Source: a virus. From it: 64,000 bases of DNA. The stretch lies in the IMG/VR virus record IMGVR_UViG_3300045988_170943, positions 288,001 through 352,000 of that record; one strand, 5' to 3'. Below are positions 53,299-63,774 of this stretch, piece by piece (the first letter of the stretch is position 1; each line of letters opens with the position of its first letter). The translations under genes were made by a program, and so were the position numbers. Under the pieces are notes generated by a model, which saw only the letters and a list, made by a program, of their open reading frames with translations, was not told the DNA's origin and did no database searches.

Positions 53299-53371
53299 CG
53301 GCGTGTAGCGCAGTTTGGTAGCGCACCTGTTTCGGGAACAGGGGCCACAGGTTCAAATCCTGTTACGCCGA
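53299..53371 (+). tRNA. tRNA-Pro (CGG)
   Basis: manual cloverleaf: acceptor cggcgtg/tacgccg, anticodon loop ttCGGga, T-loop ttcaaat. Confidence 0.7.
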
Positions 53372-53425
53372 CGACGAGAACACTAAAAGGCGTCAACAAG
53401 CATGACAACAAGTGCTCTCACAAAT

Positions 53426-53510
53426 GTCACGGTAAAGCGTAACTGGTAGCGCGCCGGTCTGTAAAACCGGTCTGAAAGGTCTGTGGGTTCAAGTCCCACC
53501 CGTGGCACCA
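53426..53510 (+). tRNA. tRNA-Tyr (GTA), type II, CCA encoded
   Basis: anticodon loop ctGTAaa, long variable arm, T-loop ttcaagt, 3' CCA. Confidence 0.7.
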
Positions 53511-53511
53511 T

Positions 53512-53595
53512 TCTCCTGTAGTTTAATGGCAAAACAGGTGACTGTTAATCACTCATTTCAGGTTCGAATCCTGGCGGGAGAGCCAATTACGAAAC
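53512..53595 (+). tRNA. tRNA-Asn (GTT), CCA encoded
   Basis: anticodon loop ctGTTaa; acceptor tctcctg/cgggaga; 3' gCCA. Confidence 0.65.
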
Positions 53596-53649
53596 ACAAG
53601 TTGCGGCACAACCTTCAACAAAATACAGGAACACGTGCCTACAACAAAT

Positions 53650-53732
53650 GCTCTTGTGGCGAAATGGTATACGCAGCAGACTTAAAATCTGTCTCCCTTG
53701 CGGGATTAAGGGTTCGAGTCCCTTCAGGAGCA
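53650..53732 (+). tRNA. tRNA-Leu (TAA), type II
   Basis: anticodon loop ctTAAaa, long variable arm, T-loop ttcgagt. Confidence 0.7.
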
Positions 53733-53733
53733 C

Positions 53734-53819
53734 GGTGTATGTGGTGGAATAGGTATACACACCAGGTTGTGGCCCTGGGTCCATATGGACACATGCGGGT
53801 TCGATCCCCGTCATACACC
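53734..53819 (+). tRNA. tRNA-His (GTG)-like with 8-bp acceptor (G-1:C73) and an unusually long variable hairpin
   Basis: ggtgtatg/catacacc 8-bp acceptor; anticodon loop ttGTGgc; extra hairpin gtccatatggac between anticodon and T arms. Confidence 0.5.
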
Positions 53820-54099
53820 CGATGGAAGCAAGTCCGGGCAACTGCTTTCTGACACATGAAGAGACGCGAGTGAAAATCTCGCTGGTTCCTACAATGGAGC
53901 CATAGTTTGTGAATGCAGTGAATGTGTTTGCAACAAGGTGCGACCGCAATCGAGTACATGTGGCGTTGCAACCACACGTACTACTCCTCCGCAAGAGGAG
54001 ACATCCTGCACAACGACTGACAGTACCAAAACACTTCATGCATCAAAAATAGAGATGCCAGAATGGCTACTATAAAGCCTTCAAAGTTGCTTCCACCAC

Positions 54100-54173
54100 T
54101 GGCGTGTGGCGCAGTAGGTTAGCGCGGCACTCTGATAAAGTGCAGGTCGTGAGTTCAAATCTCACCACGCCAA
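54100..54173 (+). tRNA. tRNA-Ile (GAT)
   Basis: anticodon loop ctGATaa, acceptor tggcgtg/cacgcca. Confidence 0.75.
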
Positions 54174-54174
54174 C

Positions 54175-54258
54175 GGAGAAAATGGTAAAATTGGCTATCC
54201 AACCACCTCGAAAGTGGTGCCTGTAACAGGGCTGGGGGTTCGATTCCCTCTTTCTCCG
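54175..54258 (+). tRNA. tRNA-Ser (CGA), type II
   Basis: anticodon loop ctCGAaa, long variable arm gcctgtaacagggc. Confidence 0.65.
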
Positions 54259-54319
54259 CCGTGAATGAGTTGTCAGTAAGTGGCTTAATGACGTCATTTT
54301 GATAGGTACATTCATCAAT

Positions 54320-54410
54320 GCCCATGTAGTTCAATTGGACAGAACACTCCGCTACGGACGGAGAGGGAGCCGAAAGGCCATTGGGGGTTCAAGTCCCTCC
54401 ATGGGCACCA
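54320..54410 (+). tRNA. tRNA-Arg (ACG)-like with long variable hairpin, CCA encoded
   Basis: anticodon loop ctACGga; extra hairpin gccgaaaggc in variable region; acceptor gcccatg/catgggc; 3' aCCA. Confidence 0.5.
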
Positions 54411-54417
54411 CAACAAT

Positions 54418-54490
54418 GCCACCATAGTGTAAAGGATCCGCACAGGACTCTCCGAAGGTCCCAGTTCAGGTTCGACTCCTGATGGTGGCA
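54418..54490 (+). tRNA. tRNA-Arg (CCG)
   Basis: anticodon loop ctCCGaa; acceptor gccacca/tggtggc. Confidence 0.55.
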
Positions 54491-54508
54491 CGAACTAGAC
54501 ACAATCTA

Positions 54509-54579
54509 CGTGGATTGGCCGAGAGGATAGGCGAGGGTCTGCAAAACCCTAGACACCAGTTCGAATCTGGTATCCACGT
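54509..54579 (+). tRNA. tRNA-Cys (GCA)
   Basis: anticodon loop ctGCAaa; acceptor cgtggat/atccacg. Confidence 0.6.
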
Positions 54580-54580
54580 C

Positions 54581-54677
54581 TGCGGGGTAGAGGAGTTCGG
54601 AGTCCTCGCTGGGCTCATATCCCAGAGAATCTACAACAAACCTTGTAGTGTCGCGGGTTCAAATCCCGCCCCCGCCA
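54581..54677 (+). tRNA. initiator-like tRNA-Met (CAT) with ~26-nt variable-region hairpin insertion
   Basis: unpaired 1:72 (U·C), three G:C pairs closing anticodon loop ctCATat; extra hairpin ctacaa-caaacc-ttgtag before T-arm. Confidence 0.5.
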
Positions 54678-54971
54678 CGGGTCGATACCTTGCAAGAGGC
54701 GTTGACTAGGCTACTCTAATCCTACTATAAGAGTAGCAAAGCAATCGGTGAAACAGGCAAGTGGACCGCAGAACTTCTAGGGCGTCTAGAGAGTAATCTC
54801 TAGATACAGGTGATTTGTAGTTACTTGTCGTTATTCCCAATTGTGTAAGACCCTAGCGCTCTTTTTAAAATCCTTTGCGGTTTTTAAAAATATGTGAGTA
54901 ACCACCTGTACGACTTCTTCATAAGTGCAGAAGCCTATGCTGATGTAGGGTACATGTGGCAGGTGGACAAT

Positions 54972-55044
54972 GGTCATGTAACTCAGATGGTAGAGTACCT
55001 GAACGACACTCAGGAGGCCACAGGTTCAAGTCCTGTCATGACCA
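54972..55044 (+). tRNA. tRNA-Val (GAC)
   Basis: anticodon loop acGACac; acceptor ggtcatg/catgacc. Confidence 0.6.
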
Positions 55045-55129
55045 CGGAAAGTAAGCGAATGGTTAGCGGCCGCTTTGGAACAGTGGTGCCTCGTTAAGGG
55101 GTTGTGGGTTCGAGTCCCGTGCTTTCCGC
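55045..55129 (+). tRNA. tRNA-Ser (GGA), type II
   Basis: anticodon loop ttGGAac; long variable arm. Confidence 0.6.
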
Positions 55130-55306
55130 TACAACAGCACCATAAATCCTACACTATCCTGTGACCCAACACACGCAGAAACACAGTTGACACACTACAA
55201 ACCCACATGGTATGCTAGTGTCATCAAGCAAGGGAGTTGACAACCATGACACCCTCATGGTAAACTTCCTTCAAGCGTTGTTTGAGAACTAGATAGTGGT
55301 AGCATT

Positions 55307-55379
55307 GCCGACTTGGCTCAGTTGGAAGAGCGTCCGGTTGAAGCCCGGAAGGTCAAAGGTTCGATCCCTTTAGTCGGCA
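55307..55379 (+). tRNA. tRNA-Phe (GAA)
   Basis: anticodon loop ttGAAgc; acceptor gccgact/agtcggc. Confidence 0.7.
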
Positions 55380-56301
55380 CGACAGGCATGGCTGATAAAC
55401 CTAGGCGACTAGGCCAAAGGCTATCCCAACGGATGAGGGAAGCCACCCAACCTCCAGGAGGTAGGGCACCCCATGCAATATGCCGGGTTCTAAAGCGTGT
55501 GCCAGCAGATGGCGCACGAACCCCTAAGTGAGGCTCAGGCCCAATGGTAAATACTGAGGGCACGACCAAATCAGTCTCAATGAGCCAGTAACTCACGACA
55601 AGGTTAACCCGACATAAGGGAGAAACAAGTCCGAGACACGCAAAATCAAGGGCGGTCTCCCACCTGGAAACAAGGAAGACCTGATAAGTCTCCCACGTCG
55701 CCAGGAATGGAGCGGGTAGCGCCAATCCTAGAGAATGTGAGGACTTTCGTGGGCCAAAATCCCATGAACCTCTAGGGAAGCACATTCTCACAATCCTCAC
55801 AATAACAACGCAAAAGACTTCCCTGATTACTGGATGAAAATGTCCTAAACCTGACGGCCGTATGGTCAAGTCAGGCTGAGATGAGACCGCAAGTCTCACC
55901 CCAGTTGGGTAGACGGAAGTGCAACCCAGCAGGTCGCGTCTGCTGCGTGAAACATCCCACCCGAGTAGCCCAGTAATCTACAGAGTGATTCACTCAAAGA
56001 ATCGGGCATGACGTTCTAACACGGTACGCCTGGAAACAGGGTGCCATGTGGACAAGCAGGCAACACGGTAAACGTGGTAATCCTGACGAAAGGAACGTCG
56101 GAACAAGGTATAGTCTCAGCCTCATCACCTCAACTTACTTATGTGCCCCACAGAGTCTAGGGTTTCTGTGGTGGACCACCCACATGGAGTGGTTTCAGAC
56201 AACCAGCGGCACGACGAATCCAGTGGATAAACTGCCCATTAATACTATGGATTTTATCCTAAGGAGTAGTCATACCCTCAGCCATGTTCAAAACAACAAA
56301 T

Positions 56302-56376
56302 GGCCCTATGGTCCAGCCAGGTTAGGACGCCTCCCTGTCAAGGAGGAGATCGCCGGTTCAAATCCGGTTAGGGTCG
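56302..56376 (+). tRNA. tRNA-Asp (GTC)
   Basis: anticodon loop ctGTCaa; acceptor ggcccta/tagggtc. Confidence 0.7.
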
Positions 56377-56413
56377 CTATCCCAGGTGGTGCGCAACAAG
56401 CCTGGGAACAAAT

Positions 56414-56486
56414 TGGCCTATAACTCAATTGGCAGAGTGATCCGCTGTTAACGGATTGGTTGAAAGTTCGAGTCTTTCTAGGCCAG
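56414..56486 (+). tRNA. tRNA-Asn (GTT), second copy
   Basis: anticodon loop ctGTTaa; acceptor tggccta/taggcca. Confidence 0.6.
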
Positions 56487-56640
56487 CGCAAAGGTCACCC
56501 GGTTTGAGAGACCGTACTAGCAAAGCACAGTCAAAATAGGTTGGTGATCGCCTGACTCGTGTGCTGCCTGTCCTGAGTGTGCTCTCAACATGCTCGCAGT
56601 TACTTTATGGCCTGGCCTTGAGGATACGACCAGGTTACTT

Positions 56641-56732
56641 GGAGGGTTCGCATAGCCAGGTTTATTGCGCTCCCCTGCTAAGGGAGTAGGGCCTAAAAAC
56701 CCTCATGGGTTCAAATCCCATACCCTCCGCCA
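56641..56732 (+). tRNA. tRNA-Ser (GCT), type II, CCA encoded
   Basis: anticodon loop ctGCTaa; long variable arm; 3' gCCA. Confidence 0.7.
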
Positions 56733-56759
56733 TCACACATACAGCAAACATGTGTGAAT

Positions 56760-56834
56760 GCCCTGTTGGTCTAGTCTGGTTAGGATGCCTCCCTCTCAAG
56801 GAGGAGATCGCCGGTTCAAATCCGGTACAGGGTA
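56760..56834 (+). tRNA. tRNA-Glu (CTC)
   Basis: anticodon loop ctCTCaa; body nearly identical to tRNA-Asp at 56302. Confidence 0.6.
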
Positions 56835-57319
56835 CGCAGAAGAGGACTCCACACACGGTGCTCAACTAGCCGGGAGCCTGCACAGGTGCCCTCTGCCACC
56901 AAAATCACCTTTCTGTGAGGTCAGGGAGTAGTTACCCTGGGGCAGAAGGAAAGAATGGTGACAAGGTTTCATATCCTGTCCTCCACCTCCACAGCAGATT
57001 CTCTCAAGGGTACCTAATTTGGGAGAATTGAATCCTCCGGGACGTGTGACTGGGACGTGAGACCTCATGAATGTTCTAGACAGGAGGTCGTCTGGTGCCA
57101 TGGTGGTATGCGCATTAAAGATGGTTCGAATCCATCCACCAGATCTATTTCAAAACCTACCCGAAAGAAACCCTGGCGGCTTTGTGTACAGTGCCGCGCT
57201 ACCCAGGGCGTGCTTTTTCAGAGAAGAGTTCTGTACCACCTTTATTCATAAAAGAATAAAAGGTCGGCGAGACATTTTCTGAAAATGCTAGGGCAGGCTC
57301 GAAAACTGTACACATTAAC

Positions 57320-57410
57320 GCCCCTATAGCTCAGTTGGTAGAGCAGCGGACTTTTAATCCGATGGCAGGTCAATAACGACCGATCGTGGGTTCGAGCCCC
57401 ACTGGGGGCA
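57320..57410 (+). tRNA. tRNA-Lys (TTT) with ~23-nt variable-region hairpin insertion
   Basis: anticodon loop ctTTTaa; extra hairpin ggtc-aataac-gacc before T-arm; acceptor gccccta/tgggggc. Confidence 0.5.
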
Positions 57411-57441
57411 CTATTTCAAGTGATTCGTTATAATGTGAATT

Positions 57442-58155
57442 ATGAACGAAGATTTGAAAGTATGTGGCATCTACGGCATTTTTGACACACTTACAGGAGA
57501 ATGCCTCTATGTAGGCCAGTCAAAGAACATTTATGAGCGCCGCCAATCTCATTTCAAGCGTCTTCGTGGAGAAAGACACCTTAAACCATTTACAGAATGG
57601 TTTGTCAGTATTGGAAAAGATGAGTCCAGACTGGATCTCAGGGTTCTTTGTAGATGTTTCGATAATGACGACATCAAGAACGAACTTGAAATCTTCTGGT
57701 TCAATGAACTTCACCCAAGATTCTACGGTGCTGTTCCGTCTGTCAACAACAGGTGGTCTCATTCAGAAGAGACTAGGAAGAAGATTGCTAGGAGGACATG
57801 TGAGTCTGAGCGACTTGGAAAGCATTATACATGTGCAGTGTACTATTACACATGTAAAATGTGTGACAAGTTTTTCGCCTCTTCAAGAAGGAAATCTAAA
57901 AAGCATATCTTCTGTTCAAAGCCATGCTCCCGCGCTTATGAAAAATCTCTGAAAATGGACACCCTTGATTACAACAGAGTTAAAAACTTGTATGAGTCTG
58001 GTGTTACTCAAGTGAAGATCGCTAAGGTGTTTGGTGTGTCGAATGCCACTGTCTCCAAGTTCATGAGAGACAATGGCATTTCTACAGGATACAAGCGTCA
58101 TGATCCTGGGCTGAAGAGGAAGTCTAGGAAGACAAGCAATGCGGATGTGGTGTAA
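57442..58155 (+). CDS. GIY-YIG homing endonuclease
   Basis: GIYGIF...CLYVGQSKNIYERRQSH (GIY-YIG), C-terminal HTH; last codons overlap tRNA-Gly. Confidence 0.85.
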   Translation: MNEDLKVCGIYGIFDTLTGECLYVGQSKNIYERRQSHFKRLRGERHLKPFTEWFVSIGKDESRLDLRVLCRCFDNDDIKNELEIFWFNELHPRFYGAVPSVNNRWSHSEETRKKIARRTCESERLGKHYTCAVYYYTCKMCDKFFASSRRKSKKHIFCSKPCSRAYEKSLKMDTLDYNRVKNLYESGVTQVKIAKVFGVSNATVSKFMRDNGISTGYKRHDPGLKRKSRKTSNADVV

Positions 58156-58214
58156 CGGTAGCACAAGACCCTTCCAAGGTTTTAGAGCGAGTTCGAGTCT
58201 CGTCATCCGCTCCA
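58141..58214 (+). tRNA. tRNA-Gly (TCC), CCA encoded
   Basis: anticodon loop ctTCCaa; acceptor gcggatg/catccgc; 3' tCCA. Confidence 0.65.
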
Positions 58215-58407
58215 GTCACTTTTTTGGCAGTCAGGAATACATGTGACCTAACTCATGTTTCCTGAGGTTGACTCACTCCTTGCTGGTGTGTTAGGATTGA
58301 GTCATCAAGCGGGGCAGGGGCGTTCTTCATAAGTCCTGGCGGCCATTGAGTCCAGAAATGGGAGCAGTGGTTTTAGAAGATTGTCAACTACATAGTGACT
58401 AAACAAT

Positions 58408-58480
58408 CCGCCTATAACTTAACTGGTTAGAGTACTTGCCTCTTAAGCTTGGAGTCCTGGTTCGAGTCCAGGTGGGCGGA
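58408..58480 (+). tRNA. tRNA, possibly Lys (CTT), weak anticodon stem
   Basis: good acceptor, D and T arms; anticodon stem has two U·U mismatches around loop ctCTTaa. Confidence 0.4.
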
Positions 58481-58736
58481 CGATCACCATAGCACCAGGT
58501 TTTGACGTGGCCGGTGCTGCCTCATCTAGTTTAATGACAGAACGCCGCGTGCTCACACATGCACGGGGAAGACAGGTTTGATTCCTGATTGGGGTTGTCG
58601 TTTGTGATTCAGGTCATGTGGGATTAAGATATGTGTGCACCCCTTGACTTGCACGTCAGCACTCACTTTTTAACATGCACAACAAGGTAAGTTTACTTCC
58701 GTTGATATTCCAACGGAAGTTAGGAGTCTTGTTTAT

Positions 58737-59366
58737 ATGGATGTTATATGTGGAGTTTATGCTATTTTTGATTCAAGTACAAATGAATGCTTGTATGTTG
58801 GCCAGTCAAGTAATGTGCTATTACGATTCAAGAAGCACTTGTATTTGTTAAAGTCAAGAAAGCATAGGAAGGATTTTGTGGCGTGGTTTGAAGATCGTAA
58901 TTTCGACGCTAAAGCCATTAGGTTTGAGATAATGGAGATATGCGATAATGAGGATAATATAAAAAACTCACTTGAAATAAAGTGGTTCAATGAGTTGTCT
59001 CCGAAATTTTATGGTCAAGTTCCATCCATGAATAGCAAGTGGTCTCATTCGGAAGAAACTATTTCTAAAATAAAAGATCACTCCCAAAGAGGGTGCAAGA
59101 TATTTTACTACGACTGCGAAAGTTGTGGTAAGGTTTTTATATCTAACAAAAGAAGATATAAGAAACATGTATTCTGTAGTGTGAAATGTAGTTCAAGCCA
59201 CTTTTCTATAGTTAACAAATTTGACTACGATACAATATCTGGTATGTATGCTAGTGGTATGACTCAATGTGAAATTGCGAAAGAACTCAATGTTTCAAAT
59301 ACGAGCATATCAAAATTTATGATGTTAAATGGAATCTCAACTGGATATTCCAAACACAAAAAATAG
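58737..59366 (+). CDS. GIY-YIG homing endonuclease (paralog, AT-rich)
   Basis: GVYAIF...CLYVGQSSN, NSKWSHSEET shared with first copy; much lower GC than surroundings. Confidence 0.85.
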   Translation: MDVICGVYAIFDSSTNECLYVGQSSNVLLRFKKHLYLLKSRKHRKDFVAWFEDRNFDAKAIRFEIMEICDNEDNIKNSLEIKWFNELSPKFYGQVPSMNSKWSHSEETISKIKDHSQRGCKIFYYDCESCGKVFISNKRRYKKHVFCSVKCSSSHFSIVNKFDYDTISGMYASGMTQCEIAKELNVSNTSISKFMMLNGISTGYSKHKK

Positions 59367-59441
59367 CGGAATGTAGCTCAGGTGGTAGAGCGCTCGCTTT
59401 GGGAGCGAGAGGTTTCGCGGGTTCGAGCCCCGCCATTCCGA
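59367..59441 (+). tRNA. tRNA-Pro (TGG)
   Basis: anticodon loop ttTGGga; acceptor cggaatg/cattccg. Confidence 0.7.
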
Positions 59442-59553
59442 CTGGGTGAACCGGAGGAGGGCCTATCCGCGGCATGGGCTTTCTTCCACATAGGAGTTGC
59501 TGTCAGTACTTGTGGACGCACAGGGTAGCGGGTGACCGAATGAGTATGGTGAG

Positions 59554-59624
59554 TGGCTTATAGTTTAATGGCAGAAGGCTCGACGGAAATCGAGTGGACA
59601 AGGTTCGATTCCTTTGAAGGCCAG
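59554..59624 (+). tRNA. tRNA-like gene with non-canonical (6- or 8-nt) anticodon loop
   Basis: acceptor and T-arm (ttcgatt) present; anticodon hairpin ctcga-cggaaa-tcgag gives a 6-nt loop, or an 8-nt loop with a 4-bp stem. Confidence 0.35.
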
Positions 59625-59635
59625 CCCAATTTCTT

Positions 59636-59719
59636 GGTAGTGTGTGCCGAGTGGCGAAGGCAACTGACTGTAAATCAGCGACGTTAGAAACACCGGGGGT
59701 TCGACTCCCTCCACTACCA
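59636..59719 (+). tRNA. tRNA-Tyr (GTA), second copy, type II
   Basis: anticodon loop ctGTAaa; long variable arm; acceptor ggtagtg/cactacc. Confidence 0.6.
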
Positions 59720-59837
59720 CTGCTGTGCAAGAATCTCACGCAAAATTGGCTACCCGCGTGTGAACAGTGAGGGTTCGACTCCCTCATCGAGTGATTAGCC
59801 ATCTCGGGGCGGTCCCTGGTGCTTGCATGGTTTTCTT

Positions 59838-59910
59838 GGGGATGTAGCACAATTGGTGGTGCGCCTGCTTTGCAAGCAGATGGTTGCGGGTTCGAGTCCC
59901 GTCTTCTCCA
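59838..59910 (+). tRNA. tRNA-Ala (TGC)
   Basis: G3:U70 pair, anticodon loop ttTGCaa. Confidence 0.65.
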
Positions 59911-59967
59911 CAACCTTTCGGTAAATATTCCGTGAGGGTGAACATCTTTCAGAAGGGAAAGAGCAGT

Positions 59968-60204
59968 ATGGATCGCAAGCAGGCTCTAGAAGTTTTGGCA
60001 AGGGATTTCTCTGCTGGCAATACTGAGTGTGATGCCGATGAGTATATGTCGCTCGCAGAGGCATTCGATGGCTATGGGTTAGATTATGAAGATGACAATG
60101 ATGGCACCATTGATGGTTTTGCTAATAGTTTGCGCACTCTAGCCCGATCGATTCAGCCTAGTCATAGCGAAATTGATGAGGCTGTTAAGGTTCTTTCCTC
60201 TTGA
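59968..60204 (+). CDS. small acidic hypothetical protein inside tRNA array
   Basis: 78-aa ORF from internal ATG with RBS gaagggaaagagcagtATG. Confidence 0.4.
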   Translation: MDRKQALEVLARDFSAGNTECDADEYMSLAEAFDGYGLDYEDDNDGTIDGFANSLRTLARSIQPSHSEIDEAVKVLSS

Positions 60205-60263
60205 CGAAAGTCTTCCTGTATTACGCTTGCATTTGAGATTTTTGGTAGGTGTGGTGCAGGTTT

Positions 60264-60339
60264 GCTCGCTTAACTCAGTTGGTAGAGTGGATCTCTTACA
60301 AGGATTTGGTCGGGGGTTCAAGTCCCTCAGCGAGCACCA
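60264..60339 (+). tRNA. tRNA-Val (TAC), CCA encoded
   Basis: anticodon loop ctTACaa; 3' aCCA. Confidence 0.7.
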
Positions 60340-60347
60340 TTGCTTTT

Positions 60348-60419
60348 GCCGGTGTAGCCAAGTGGTAAGGCACCTCTCTCATAATGAGGTCATCGCTGGT
60401 TCGATTCCAGCCATCGGTA
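60348..60419 (+). tRNA. tRNA-Met or Ile2 (CAT), elongator type
   Basis: anticodon loop ctCATaa. Confidence 0.55.
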
Positions 60420-60424
60420 CTTAT

Positions 60425-60495
60425 TCCCCCTTGGTGTAGTGGCAGCACAACCGACTTTGGATCGGTTAGCCTAGGTTCGAGTCCTGGCGGGGGAG
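60425..60495 (+). tRNA. tRNA-Gln (TTG)
   Basis: anticodon loop ctTTGga. Confidence 0.6.
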
Positions 60496-60537
60496 CGACG
60501 CTGTGGCGTGCTTTTTGGGGTGCGTGTTGGCGTTCTT

Positions 60538-60609
60538 TGCCTCTTAGTGTAATTGGTAGCACGACTGATTCTGGTTCAGTTATTCTAGGTTCGAGTCCTG
60601 GAGGGGCAG
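60538..60609 (+). tRNA. tRNA-Gln (CTG)
   Basis: anticodon loop ttCTGgt; acceptor tgcctct/aggggca. Confidence 0.65.
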
Positions 60610-60989
60610 CGATGTGAGATGGTTTCAACTGGTGCTGGTGGGCCTAGTGTTTTCAGGGTTCCTTTCCAGTTCATGACCTTGGATGACGCGACGTTTTGTT
60701 TGCGCCACGTTGCTATACTGTCTCATATTCTCCCAGTTTGCCTGACACTGGGGTCTAGGAAGTCGGGTGTCTAGCGTAGAGACCGTCCCGCTGGTAGGGC
60801 GGCGAGCCGGTTGTCATGAAGCCGGTACTTTTGCTCACGGGTTGCGCTAGTTGCCGGGCATTAGTGGACTTTGCTTGGTTTTGTGGGAAGTGGTGGAAGT
60901 TGGACGTTCTGCTGCGATTTTGTTTTCTGGTGTCACCTGCTCTTGTTAGACTTATTCCTCCTCTTGCGGGGTGGGTGGCGCCGGAATAT

Positions 60990-61061
60990 GCAGATGTGGT
61001 GTTAATGGTAGCACGCGACCTTGCCATGGTTGTAGAGCGGGTTCGAGTCCCGTCGTCTGCT
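60990..61061 (+). tRNA. tRNA-Gly (GCC)
   Basis: anticodon loop ttGCCat; acceptor gcagatg/cgtctgc. Confidence 0.65.
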
Positions 61062-61191
61062 CGGAGTTCATGGAGATGTGTAGTGGTTTGGTTACTTCAT
61101 ATTTGGGTTATGTATTGCACCGGATTACGTCTTTTCTCTCTGTGTCTCTTTTTCTTGATCCTGTCACGTTCTTGTGGCAGGGTTATTGTTT

Positions 61192-61265
61192 CCGGGTGAC
61201 GCTATTGGCTTTTAGCGGGTGATCTCCAAAGTCACTGTCATTGGGGTTCGATTCCTCCACCCGGG
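61192..61265 (+). tRNA. tRNA-Trp (CCA)
   Basis: anticodon loop ctCCAaa; acceptor ccgggtg/cacccgg. Confidence 0.65.
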
Positions 61266-61670
61266 GCGGGCTGCTCATGGCCTGAAACTGTTGGGTGATT
61301 GATGTGTTCTTTCATTCTCAGTGTTTTAGGTTGTGGGTCGTTCATTGGGCATTGAGGTTCTTCCACGGTTCATGGGCGGCTGGTGCTCTTGAGCAACGCA
61401 TTGCGATGATGTTAGTGAACTCCATCTGGTGTGTTGTGCTGCTGCGGCACAAGGGGACCTTCGCAGTTGCCTCTTGTGTGGTTCCCTGTGCTGTTCGAAG
61501 TGGTTGACAATACGGGGTGCGGTCGGGTTTATGCTGACAAGACCTGTCCGCCACACGGAGGCTTGCTGGTAGCAACAGTAAAGCACGCTTCCCTTTGATG
61601 CTGCGAGTGTGTGCTGTGGTCGCTCGTCAATCGTGTGTTTGATTCTTTGGGGCCCTTTTTGGGGATGTAG

Positions 61671-61743
61671 CACAACTGGTAGTGCGTCCGCTTGGCTTGC
61701 GGGAGGTTACGGGTTCGAGTCCCGTCTTCTCCACTATGGGGTT
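61671..61743 (+). tRNA. tRNA-Ala (GGC)
   Basis: G3:U70; anticodon loop ttGGCtt; body nearly identical to Ala(TGC) copy. Confidence 0.65.
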
Positions 61744-62451
61744 CTGGCCTCACCCCTTGGCGTCTTTCGTGCAGGCACCTAAAACGGGAGGACACTTTTC
61801 GGAGTGTCGCCTTGTGGGAGGCTGCGTGCTGGTGTCAGGATGGAGTGGCCGAGTAGCGGGACTTGTAATCCTGTGATGCGGGTAGCGTTTGCTGATTGTG
61901 GCAGGCGTCCGACTGAGGCGGTACGACACTGTGTTCTGGCGCTGTCACGCCTTTAAACGATGTGCTTTTCGCTGTCTGGTTGAGTAGCGTCATAGACACC
62001 TTGGGTTGCTCCAAAGGGCTTGTTTCTGTGGCGTGAAGCGGGACGCCTCTTTCTTAAGAAGAGGGTGTGCAGGTAGTCCGAATGAAAGCGTTACTCAGAG
62101 AGGAGTGACTTCCTTTTTGACTTATGGTGTGAGCGCATTGACCTTAGTGATGGCTGGAACACACTGACCTTGAACATGTTGGGTTGGTGTCGCAGATTCG
62201 ACGTCTGCCGCTAGGGCTGATTTTGATTTGGTCGCAACGAGCGCTATCTTATGATAGTGAAGATTGTCGTTGCTGGCTACAGGTTTTCTTTACCATTCAG
62301 GATAGATAAGGTATTGAGTAACCTGTTTTCTGTGCCTTGTGTATTGGTGGTGACCGTTGTGCCTAGAGTCCATGTTCGTCCTGACACGCATGAGATTGAG
62401 CGTTGTCGTGCCGTGAAGGGGCCATGCAGTTTTGGCACATGCTATGACACC

Positions 62452-63774
62452 ATGGACGAGGCTGAGCATGTGCGTAAGGGTCTCCTATTGCAGGAGGCGA
62501 AGAGCCTGTATGGCGAAACCTGTGTCACGGCATACGACATGAGTCTTCCTGCCGGTGTTGATGGTGTGCTGAAAGACCTTAGTAGTGTGGGGAATCCTCT
62601 GGTTGTTGGTGGTGCTGTTCGTGACTCCTTGAGTGGTCACGCCAGTAAGGATATTGACATAGAGGTTCATGGCTCCAGTATTGGCCGCATCATTAAGTAC
62701 CTGAAAGGACAGGGGTACCATGTTGATGAGGTGGGGCGCCAGTTTGGGGTGCTCAAGGTCTCCAAGGGTGGGGTGAAGAACCTTGACGTGTCTGTCCCGA
62801 GGCGTGAGAACCGTGTTGGTGTGGGTCATAAGGCGTTCGCGGTCGAGTTCAGTGAGAACATGAGTGTTTCTGAGGCGGCCGAGAGAAGAGACTTTACGTT
62901 TAACGCGATCATGTACGACCATCACAGGGGCGTCATCGTTGACCCAACTAATGGTGTCAGTGACTACCGTGACCGGGTGATGCGTGCGGTCTCTGACAGG
63001 TTCAGTGAGGATCCTTTGCGTGTCCTCAGGGGCTTCCAGTTCGCGGCAAGGTTCGGTATGCGCTACGACGAGGACACGGCCAGAATGTGTCAAACTATTC
63101 GGGAAGAGTACAGTGACCTGTCGGTGGAGCGTGTGCGTGAAGAGTTCCACAAGTTCTTCACTAAGGGTGAAGACTACAGTGCTGGCGTGAGGGCGCTCCA
63201 AGACTCTGGTTGGGACAGTATTGAGCCTGGTCTGCGAGAGTCACTGGACGGTAGTCGAACTGTGGCTGCCCTCAACAACCTCACTGAACTTGACCCTAGT
63301 CAGCGTTCTGTCATTGGTGCCGCTATCATCCTCAAAGGGATCTCTACCCGTTCCGATAGGGAGAACTTCGCCAGAGTCGCCACAATGAGTAAGAGTGAGG
63401 CCACTCAGGCGATAACCCTCAGCGAGTTGGGTCACTCTGACATGTGTGACGACTATACTCTCAGGAAGACTGCTCTGGCGCTCGCCAGGAAAGGGACCTC
63501 ATACAGGCAGGTTCGCGCACTAGCGAAAACCTGTGGTGACAGCAGCATGGTGGCAGCCACCAATAAGGCAATCAAGATGGGCATGGGTGACAGACCCGCA
63601 CCGGATCTTGTTACTGGGAAAGACATTCTCCCTATATCTGGTCGAGTTCCTGGGAGGTGGGTTGGTGACCTGCTGGACCAGGTGCGTGAGGCTCAGTACA
63701 AGGGTGAGGTGACTAGCCGCCACCAGGCGCTCGATCTTGCACGGCGACTCACCAACAGCCTGGAAGACGACTAG
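62452..63774 (+). CDS. cca: tRNA nucleotidyltransferase (CCA-adding enzyme, class II)
   Basis: head-domain motif GGAVRDSLSGHASKDIDIEV (GGxVRD...DxD) and RRDFTFNA; in-frame upstream extension to 62251 is less likely. Confidence 0.8.
   Translation: MDEAEHVRKGLLLQEAKSLYGETCVTAYDMSLPAGVDGVLKDLSSVGNPLVVGGAVRDSLSGHASKDIDIEVHGSSIGRIIKYLKGQGYHVDEVGRQFGVLKVSKGGVKNLDVSVPRRENRVGVGHKAFAVEFSENMSVSEAAERRDFTFNAIMYDHHRGVIVDPTNGVSDYRDRVMRAVSDRFSEDPLRVLRGFQFAARFGMRYDEDTARMCQTIREEYSDLSVERVREEFHKFFTKGEDYSAGVRALQDSGWDSIEPGLRESLDGSRTVAALNNLTELDPSQRSVIGAAIILKGISTRSDRENFARVATMSKSEATQAITLSELGHSDMCDDYTLRKTALALARKGTSYRQVRALAKTCGDSSMVAATNKAIKMGMGDRPAPDLVTGKDILPISGRVPGRWVGDLLDQVREAQYKGEVTSRHQALDLARRLTNSLEDD

Follow-up and report, generated by a model that had tools for sequence, protein, structure and literature searches.

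Four tRNA genes in a 64,000-nucleotide (nt) stretch of an uncultured large phage (IMG/VR record IMGVR_UViG_3300045988_170943, positions 288,001 to 352,000; hereafter the window) encode a tRNA-His(GUG), a tRNA-Arg(ACG), an initiator-type tRNA-Met(CAU) and a tRNA-Lys(UUU) that each carry an extra hairpin in the variable region. All four have a variable region of at least 10 nt that folds into a stem-loop, as class II tRNAs do, whereas their anticodons lie outside Leu, Ser, Tyr and Sec, the isotypes to which class II is limited in bacteria. Hairpins of this kind recur in many phage loci and are not specific to the window; the distinct structural class proposed in an earlier note on this DNA is a real, widespread variant of tRNA architecture in phages. 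Judged from their sequences, the four are probably functional phage tRNAs of cognate identity (His, Arg, initiator Met and Lys) in which the arm is retained.

The genes were called with ARAGORN, the Rfam covariance model RF00005 and minimum-free-energy folding (Table 1). ARAGORN predicted His(gtg) at 53735-53820, Arg(acg) at 54320-54410, Met(cat) at 54581-54678 and Lys(ttt) at 57320-57411, with lengths of 86, 91, 98 and 92 nt that are long for their isotypes, and RF00005 matched each of them over the full model (positions 1-71) with a score above its gathering score of 29 bits. The two methods thus agree on the four genes and anticodons that the earlier note had proposed, and under both the anticodons stayed in place and no gene was refolded into a Ser or Leu tRNA. 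In the covariance-model alignment, the extra bases of His, Arg and Met are all inserted after the anticodon stem and before the T stem, and those of Lys were assigned to the variable region by the ARAGORN structure and the fold.

The minimum-free-energy folds of all four tRNAs are five-armed cloverleaves, in which the hairpins named in the earlier note were recovered exactly. The variable region of His has 16 nt (53779-53794), made up of the hairpin GUCC-AUAU-GGAC (53779-53790) and the unpaired bases ACAU; that of Arg has 19 nt (54364-54382), with GCC-GAAA-GGC (54369-54378) followed by CAUU; that of Met has 26-27 nt (54626-54652), with CUACAA-CAAACC-UUGUAG (54631-54648) followed by UGUC; and that of Lys has ~23 nt (57363-57385), with GGUC-AAUAAC-GACC (57368-57381) followed by GAUC. 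The arm stems of His, Arg, Met and Lys are thus 4, 3, 6 and 4 base pairs (bp) long, and four unpaired bases lie 3' of each arm. The insertion of about 26 nt described earlier for Met corresponds in length to its whole variable region, while the insertion itself comprises ~21-22 nt. When folded in isolation, the variable regions were more stable than 94-99.9% of shuffled sequences; equal or greater stability was reached by 5, 302, 125 and 288 of 5000 shuffles. ARAGORN also offered another pairing for the Arg arm, which was rejected because a G-to-A change in a relative (L030) breaks it, whereas the GCC/GGC stem and its tetraloop survive.

The bodies of the four tRNAs are those of ordinary tRNAs, with the standard 7/5 split between acceptor and T stem and with the conserved tertiary nucleotides U8, A14, G18G19, the T-loop and the 15-48 pair, which is A-U in His and Arg and G-C in Met and Lys. 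The hairpin is a short, self-contained element at the site of the Leu, Ser and Tyr variable arms, and the last of the four unpaired bases forms the 15-48 pair, which would preserve the L-shaped core and let the arm project outwards like that of a class II tRNA. From the sequence, the CCA 3' end is encoded in Arg and absent from the other three genes.

Decaying pseudogenes or chance calls in a fast-evolving array could in principle mimic such tRNAs, and the array does contain two tRNA-like remnants (Table 1). We regard this as hardly credible for the four genes, which score 43.9-63.4 bits against the threshold of 29, have all stems intact and the conserved tertiary nucleotides present, and are retained in relatives with compensatory changes. 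Moreover, each is the sole gene of its type (His, Arg-ACG, initiator-type and Lys-UUU) among the 31 tRNA genes within the window.

Table 1. Positions of the armed tRNA genes and of other elements in the window
Feature	Position	Strand	Method or score
tRNA-His(GUG), G-1 to C73	53734-53819	+	ARAGORN, Rfam 50.1 bits, fold
tRNA-Arg(ACG), encoded CCA end	54320-54410	+	ARAGORN, Rfam 58.8 bits, fold
tRNA-Met(CAU), initiator-type	54581-54677	+	ARAGORN, Rfam 43.9 bits, fold z-score -4.2
tRNA-Lys(UUU)	57320-57410	+	ARAGORN, Rfam 63.4 bits, fold
Array of 31 tRNA genes holding the four tRNAs	53299-61734	+	ARAGORN
Second CAU tRNA, elongator type	60348-60420		
tRNA nucleotidyltransferase (CCA-adding enzyme) gene, just downstream of the array	62251-63774	+	PHROG 2244, E = 6.8e-53
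GOLLD RNA (RF02032)	55730-56122, probably ~55380-56300	+	147.5 bits (gathering score 150), E = 5.8e-40
Open reading frame, weak HNH/homing endonuclease match	57442-58155	+	
Open reading frame, weak HNH/homing endonuclease match	58737-59366	+	
tRNA-like remnant	57088-57146		
tRNA-like remnant, weak tRNA match	59555-59623		25.9 bits, below threshold

Identity of the armed tRNAs

The identity elements were read from the sequence. In His, G-1 (53734) pairs with C73 (53819) and the anticodon GTG lies at 53769-53771; Arg has A20, C35, G36 and A73; and Lys has U35 and A73. Met leaves U1 and C72 without a pairing partner, closes its anticodon stem with three G:C pairs (G29-31 with C39-41) and has A11:U24, marks that by sequence are those of the bacterial initiator tRNA(fMet). 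The class I identities suggested earlier are therefore borne out by cognate anticodons and by identity elements that are intact in sequence.

Among 1061 phage tRNAs, the D arms nearest to those of Arg, Met and Lys belong to cognate or other class I tRNAs, whereas 20 of the 25 nearest to the His D arm belong to Leu. The class II type of D arm, with a 3-bp stem and a long loop, is accordingly seen in His and not in Arg, Met or Lys. The description of the four as independent calls for a caveat on this account, since a cognate class I D arm is present in Arg, Met and Lys and not in His. Over its full length, however, the His tRNA matches Leu at 49-52 of 86 positions, no more than it matches other tRNAs.

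The G-1 of His directly abuts the end of tRNA-Leu(UAA), with zero spacer (53650-53819), and in L030 (2975-3167) the His tRNA and the adjacent Leu(UAA) have an identical 21-nt run across the D arm. This match hints at gene conversion or shared ancestry, and the His arm, or part of the His scaffold, may derive from a class II tRNA. We also considered a recent duplication of the adjacent Leu(UAA) as the source of His and rejected it, as the D arm alone is common to the two and the overall identity is unremarkable. An origin of the nev- or nov-type, in which a Leu or Ser body acquires a changed anticodon, was likewise rejected on the class I D arms of Arg, Met and Lys, the cognate discriminators, and the cognate acceptor features of His and Met.

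A different outcome would be that the arm recruits seryl-, leucyl- or tyrosyl-tRNA synthetase (SerRS, LeuRS or TyrRS), so that Ser, Leu or Tyr is inserted at His, Arg, Met and Lys codons, in the manner of the nematode nev-tRNAs or the bacterial allo-tRNAs. SerRS reads the long arm and not the anticodon (PMC7609411), the nematode nev-tRNAs offer a precedent (PMC3333845), and the His D arm is of Leu type. We nevertheless consider a changed identity highly improbable, since the cognate identity sets are intact and SerRS recognises G73 (PMC7609411), whereas the discriminators are C73 in His and A73 in the others. Furthermore, A73 is crucial for LeuRS (PMC9976931), which the C73 and G-1 of His should block. 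The four unpaired bases next to the arm also differ from the one of Ser and the two of Leu, the stems of three of the four tRNAs have just 3-4 bp, and Arg, Met and Lys each have a D arm of the cognate class I type. In addition, missense incorporation across the proteome wherever a His, Arg or Lys codon is read would come at a very high cost, as would mischarging of the initiator.

Arms in related and unrelated phages

Syntenic relatives were found through the CCA-adding enzyme (L001, L002 and L003, at 84-85% protein identity), with syntenic arrays of 44 tRNAs and a transfer-messenger RNA (tmRNA) each, and further relatives came from pattern scans (L030, L038, L041, L044, L077, L088, L122 and L137). 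In these phages the His stem reads GUCC/GGAC, GCCC/GGGC or GUCCU/AGGAC, with compensatory replacement of U-A by C-G. The GCC/GGC stem of Arg is kept and its loop is GAAA or GGAA, both of the GNRA form; the Met stem pairs CUACAA or CUACAG with UUGUAG around loops that vary; and the Lys arms of the clade are GGUC/GACC or GGC/GCC, with the loop enlarged to 14 nt in L122. Comparison with related phages thus shows hairpins that are kept through compensatory changes.

The window Lys tRNA also belongs to a widespread phage Lys(UUU) family, for which no close cultured relative was found and in which the arm covaries among GGUC/GACC, GGC/GCC, GAC/GUC and UGC/GCA. The 15-48 pair of Lys covaries as well, being G15-C48 in the window and A15-U48 in L001 and L002. 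As MAFFT misaligned the arm in this family, we used a covariance model built from one Lys subfamily, to which the window Lys and Arg were also aligned. In the resulting alignment, all three pairs of the Lys/Arg arm helix are altered on both sides, and 100% of the cells are paired. The per-site divergence of the variable region is 5-8 times that of the tRNA body for His, Met and Lys, with pairing kept, whereas the Arg arm is conserved as strongly as the Arg body. Such rapid change of arm sequence, with pairing alone kept, counts against sequence-specific recognition of the arm.

A Met-type orthologue in L122 (2982-3057; also in L134) has acceptor, D and T arms identical to those of the window initiator-type gene, and its flanks are homologous. 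Its anticodon and variable arms have been replaced as one module, with neither the extra arm nor the three G:C pairs, which suggests from the sequence that modules are exchanged inside tRNA genes. The clade also has a fifth armed class I tRNA, a 94-nt Ile(UAU) with the arm GUGC-CUGAUAU-GCAC (L001 15160-15253; L002 15129-15222), at a site downstream of the CCA-enzyme gene and beyond the window.

To follow the arm further, we scanned viral contigs for the initiator anticodon arm followed by at least 4 extra bases and the T arm, and found this pattern in at least 80 contigs. The analogous Lys(UUU) pattern was present in 48 viral contigs, of which some are giant viruses of eukaryotes and were excluded. 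The scans are biased towards Met and Lys; the isotypes affected go beyond those targeted. Among the 1061 distinct tRNAs that ARAGORN called in ~125 phage loci, 155 are class I tRNAs with a variable region of at least 10 nt, including Asn (11/51), Ile (10/50, mostly UAU), Arg (8/65), His (5/31), Cys (5/25) and Trp (6/36), with none in Ala (0/40) or Phe (0/41). One carrier is a cultured phage, Vibrio phage henriette 12B8, whose 93-nt tRNA-Ile(UAU) is annotated as a plain tRNA-Ile. Long-armed Ile(UAU) recurs in several unrelated phage loci, and in two loci from the Lys scan (L144 and L120) it stands beside long-armed tRNAs whose anticodons correspond to stop codons (cta, 89 nt; tta, 86 nt), possibly suppressors of viruses with a recoded stop codon.

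The long-arm class I hairpins share one design, with stems of mostly 3-4 bp and loops of mostly four bases. GNRA loops account for 40 of their 71 tetraloops, compared with 49 of 78 in the class II arms of the same loci, and 74 of 81 long-arm class I tRNAs (91%) retain the 15-48 pair, where permutation gave a mean of 38 and a maximum of 54. Typically, a single base is left unpaired 3' of the arm in Ser tRNAs, two bases in Leu, three in Tyr and 3-4 in the long-arm class I tRNAs. Copying of the arm from a neighbouring class II gene was tried as an origin and rejected, the best local similarity to class II arms being 4.76 for those of the same locus and 4.72 for those of random loci.

These features also bear on the proposal, raised in the earlier note, that the hairpins are self-splicing or otherwise processed insertions, cut out after transcription to leave ordinary 76-nt tRNAs. 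Group I introns are indeed present in other phage tRNA arrays (L051 5738-5920, 62.9 bits; L053 5544-5735, 69.3 bits), and archaeal tRNA genes carry inserts downstream of the anticodon loop. However, the inserts of ~11-22 nt leave no space for a catalytic core, they lie in the variable region and not in the anticodon loop, and their geometry, loop statistics and kept 15-48 pair resemble mature class II arms. No intron family matched at 53.7-57.5 kb (E <= 0.1), in a search that did not formally include the bulge-helix-bulge motif. The host type is bacterial as judged from the sequence, because tRNA-Tyr is class II, G-1 is encoded and the relatives carry tmRNA, and no endonuclease-ligase pathway for the variable region is known in bacteria. 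Given the size and position of the inserts and the lack of an intron match, we exclude this proposal as very unlikely to hold. The L051 and L053 arrays also hold long-armed class I tRNAs, and L053 a permuted tmRNA.

For the initiator, the one isotype compared with cellular genomes, the pattern was matched by 65 stretches in 185,579 bacterial and archaeal species genomes. Twenty-three of these are archaeal, with longer inserts that are probably introns, 14 are assembly joins with runs of N, ~11 are tandem partial duplications, and fragments or tRNA-like repeats make up another ~13. No more than 5 qualify as clean hairpin tRNAs, and these lie without exception on contigs of metagenome-assembled genomes (MAGs) of 4.3 kb or less that hold several tRNA genes, and three of them are identical to a phage contig. 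The armed initiator tRNA is thus essentially confined to phages. MAGs of Bacteroidales and related groups (L194 5088-6281; L156, L166, L193, L197 and L211) contain repeated tRNA-like 3' halves (GGGCTCATATCCCGAC...GTCGGGAC...GGTTCGAATCC) without a tRNA 5' half, which reach up to six tandem copies at 192-nt spacing in L194.

Possible role of the arm

If the four tRNAs act as we suppose, the arm would stay in the mature tRNA, charging would be performed by the cognate synthetases of the host, and Arg(ACG) would decode through inosine-34. The spacer of 3-4 bases would prevent confusion with Ser (1 base) or Leu (2 bases) tRNAs. As for the benefit to the phage, we tentatively favour a steric and adaptive role, in which the arm would alter the elbow and the variable-pocket face, and so change how host proteins that read this face (toxins or nucleases that target tRNA, and some modification enzymes) act on phage tRNAs as compared with host tRNAs. 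The ribosome, the synthetases and the factors of initiation and elongation would accept it as they do class II arms. A more specific form, to which we give a smaller chance, is that the arm marks phage tRNAs as 'self', for escape from host immunity or toxins directed at tRNA or from phage-encoded removal of host tRNAs; if true, this would be a second, structural route of tRNA counter-defence beside the known anticodon-loop mutations. The near-confinement of the initiator form to phages makes a steric mark between phage and host attractive, and the arm is feasible because tRNAs engineered to carry variable arms can be given His, Ala or Tyr identity and still work in E. coli translation (PMC7590224).

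Several points weigh against this picture. The covariation alignment was fitted to the modelled structure. The presence of the arm is polymorphic among close relatives, as L001 has a different, 78-nt, armless initiator and L122 has an armless Arg(ACG) as well as the armless Met-type gene, which makes the arm dispensable for the phage lineage. Characterised anticodon nucleases reportedly mostly read the anticodon stem-loop, and T5 tRNAs are said to evade them through anticodon-loop changes, so that an arm at the elbow is no obvious shield. An extra arm could even draw toxins such as MenT3, which is reported to prefer tRNA-Ser (PMC11541572), if the long arm contributes to that preference. Finally, a fast-changing arm with no co-occurring protein suits a tolerated insertion equally well.

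In such a tolerated, non-adaptive insertion the tRNAs work and the hairpin is idle, a reading that is quite possible and about as likely as the steric role. The variable region would be the one site that accepts extra bases, accessory phage tRNAs would be under weaker purifying selection than those of the host, and once an insert was present selection would merely keep it compactly folded. The divergence of the arm at 5-8 times the rate of the body with pairing alone kept, its variable presence among close relatives, and the failure to find a clear isotype logic or an associated protein all agree with this. PheRS reads variable-pocket nucleotides, and the absence of arms from the Ala and Phe tRNAs surveyed fits limits set by synthetase tolerance. 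On the other hand, a single design (3-4 bp, GNRA loop, 3-4 base spacer) occurs across many unrelated phages and isotypes, the Lys(UUU) family retains the arm over wide divergence, and the Arg arm is conserved like the tRNA body. Ready-made GNRA hairpins are also improbable products of random insertion, yet there was no sign of copying from class II arms.

The rule that in bacteria long arms belong to Leu, Ser, Tyr and Sec only, which underlies tRNA classification, synthetase identity rules and annotation software, is broken by a recurrent, phage-restricted set comprising initiator, Lys, His, Arg, Asn, Ile and other tRNAs that would keep their cognate identity. Armed class I tRNAs may serve as a sequence signature for phage-derived tRNAs. 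As natural examples they would also demonstrate that an extra arm is acceptable to many synthetases and to the initiation machinery, which is useful for the design of orthogonal or tagged tRNAs, and they pose a concrete, testable question on the conflict between phage and host over tRNAs.

Array context and comparison with known tRNA systems

The window encodes RecA, a DnaB-type helicase, ribonucleotide reductase, several other helicases, HNH and homing endonucleases, and the CCA-adding enzyme. The last was the only tRNA-related enzyme, with no synthetase or RNA ligase among the 30 of the larger window open reading frames (ORFs) that were scanned with PHROGs or Pfam. No close cultured relative of the phage was found, the best match of the DnaB-like helicase having <31% identity. 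Further downstream, ~8 kb beyond the CCA-enzyme gene, the syntenic relatives have a tmRNA (L001 19839-20215, also L002 and L003) with the tag ANSDNFALAA, which we take to be proteobacterial in appearance.

The GOLLD RNA lies between tRNA-Phe and tRNA-Asp, and occupies the same place in L001, L030, L038, L077 and L122. GOLLD is found near phage tRNA islands and forms a 14-mer cage (PMC12286853). We considered whether the hairpins are linked to GOLLD, with GNRA loops as docking handles, and set this idea aside, as a search at the gathering score of 14 unrelated loci rich in armed tRNAs (143 kb, up to 14 kb per contig) gave neither GOLLD nor ROOL, which is weak counter-evidence.

Of the two endonuclease-like ORFs inside the array, the first begins 31 nt past the long-armed Lys tRNA. 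The Met gene is followed by a spacer of ~290 nt (54679-54971) that is conserved in L038 and L122 and absent from L001; it holds a promoter-like TTGACT-N18-TATAAG, and similar TTGACA-N17-TAnnnT motifs are found at ~55188-55280. The first tRNA-like remnant has a 7-bp acceptor-like stem and a T arm (GGTTCGAATCC) without a full cloverleaf, and no exact copy of it was present in the fetched loci.

The open-access literature and bioRxiv yielded no account of class I tRNAs of phages that bear a variable arm, and reviews of non-canonical tRNAs and tRNA identity, as well as the allo-tRNA and nev-tRNA papers, were without such a structure. The closest structural parallel is the bacterial class II tRNA, with a stem-loop at the same site of the variable region, a similar share of GNRA loops, a kept 15-48 pair and an arm geometry that depends on how many bases are left unpaired 3' of the stem. 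The window tRNAs differ in their isotypes (His, Arg, initiator Met and Lys), for which they have the proper identity elements, in having class I D arms except in His, and in the spacer, which is 4 bases here and 3-4 in the phage long-arm set, compared with 1 in Ser and 2 in Leu.

The nematode nev-tRNAs and eukaryotic V-arm tRNAs (Hamashima et al.; PMC3333845) likewise combine a long arm with a non-Leu/Ser anticodon. They are eukaryotic class II bodies with such anticodons and reportedly decode an alternative code for leucine, whereas Arg, Met and Lys of the window have a cognate class I body with cognate identity elements, in a bacteriophage. The allo-tRNAs, selC* tRNA-Cys and (8/4) His and Ser tRNAs (Mukai et al.; PMC5389517) are also non-standard and metagenomic, some of them in phage clusters, and in allo-tRNAs a long arm goes together with a range of anticodons, UAU and GUC among them. 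That group has an 8/4 or 9/3 split of acceptor and T stem, Sec-like D arms and mostly G73 or U73, and its (8/4) His lacks G-1 (PMC5389517). In contrast, the 7/5 split is found in all four window tRNAs, together with ordinary D arms and either A73 or C73, and their His has G-1:C73. Lastly, the engineered variable-arm tRNAs (Mukai 2020; PMC7590224) are synthetic and built on allo-tRNA scaffolds, whereas those of the phages are natural, have class I scaffolds and are widespread.

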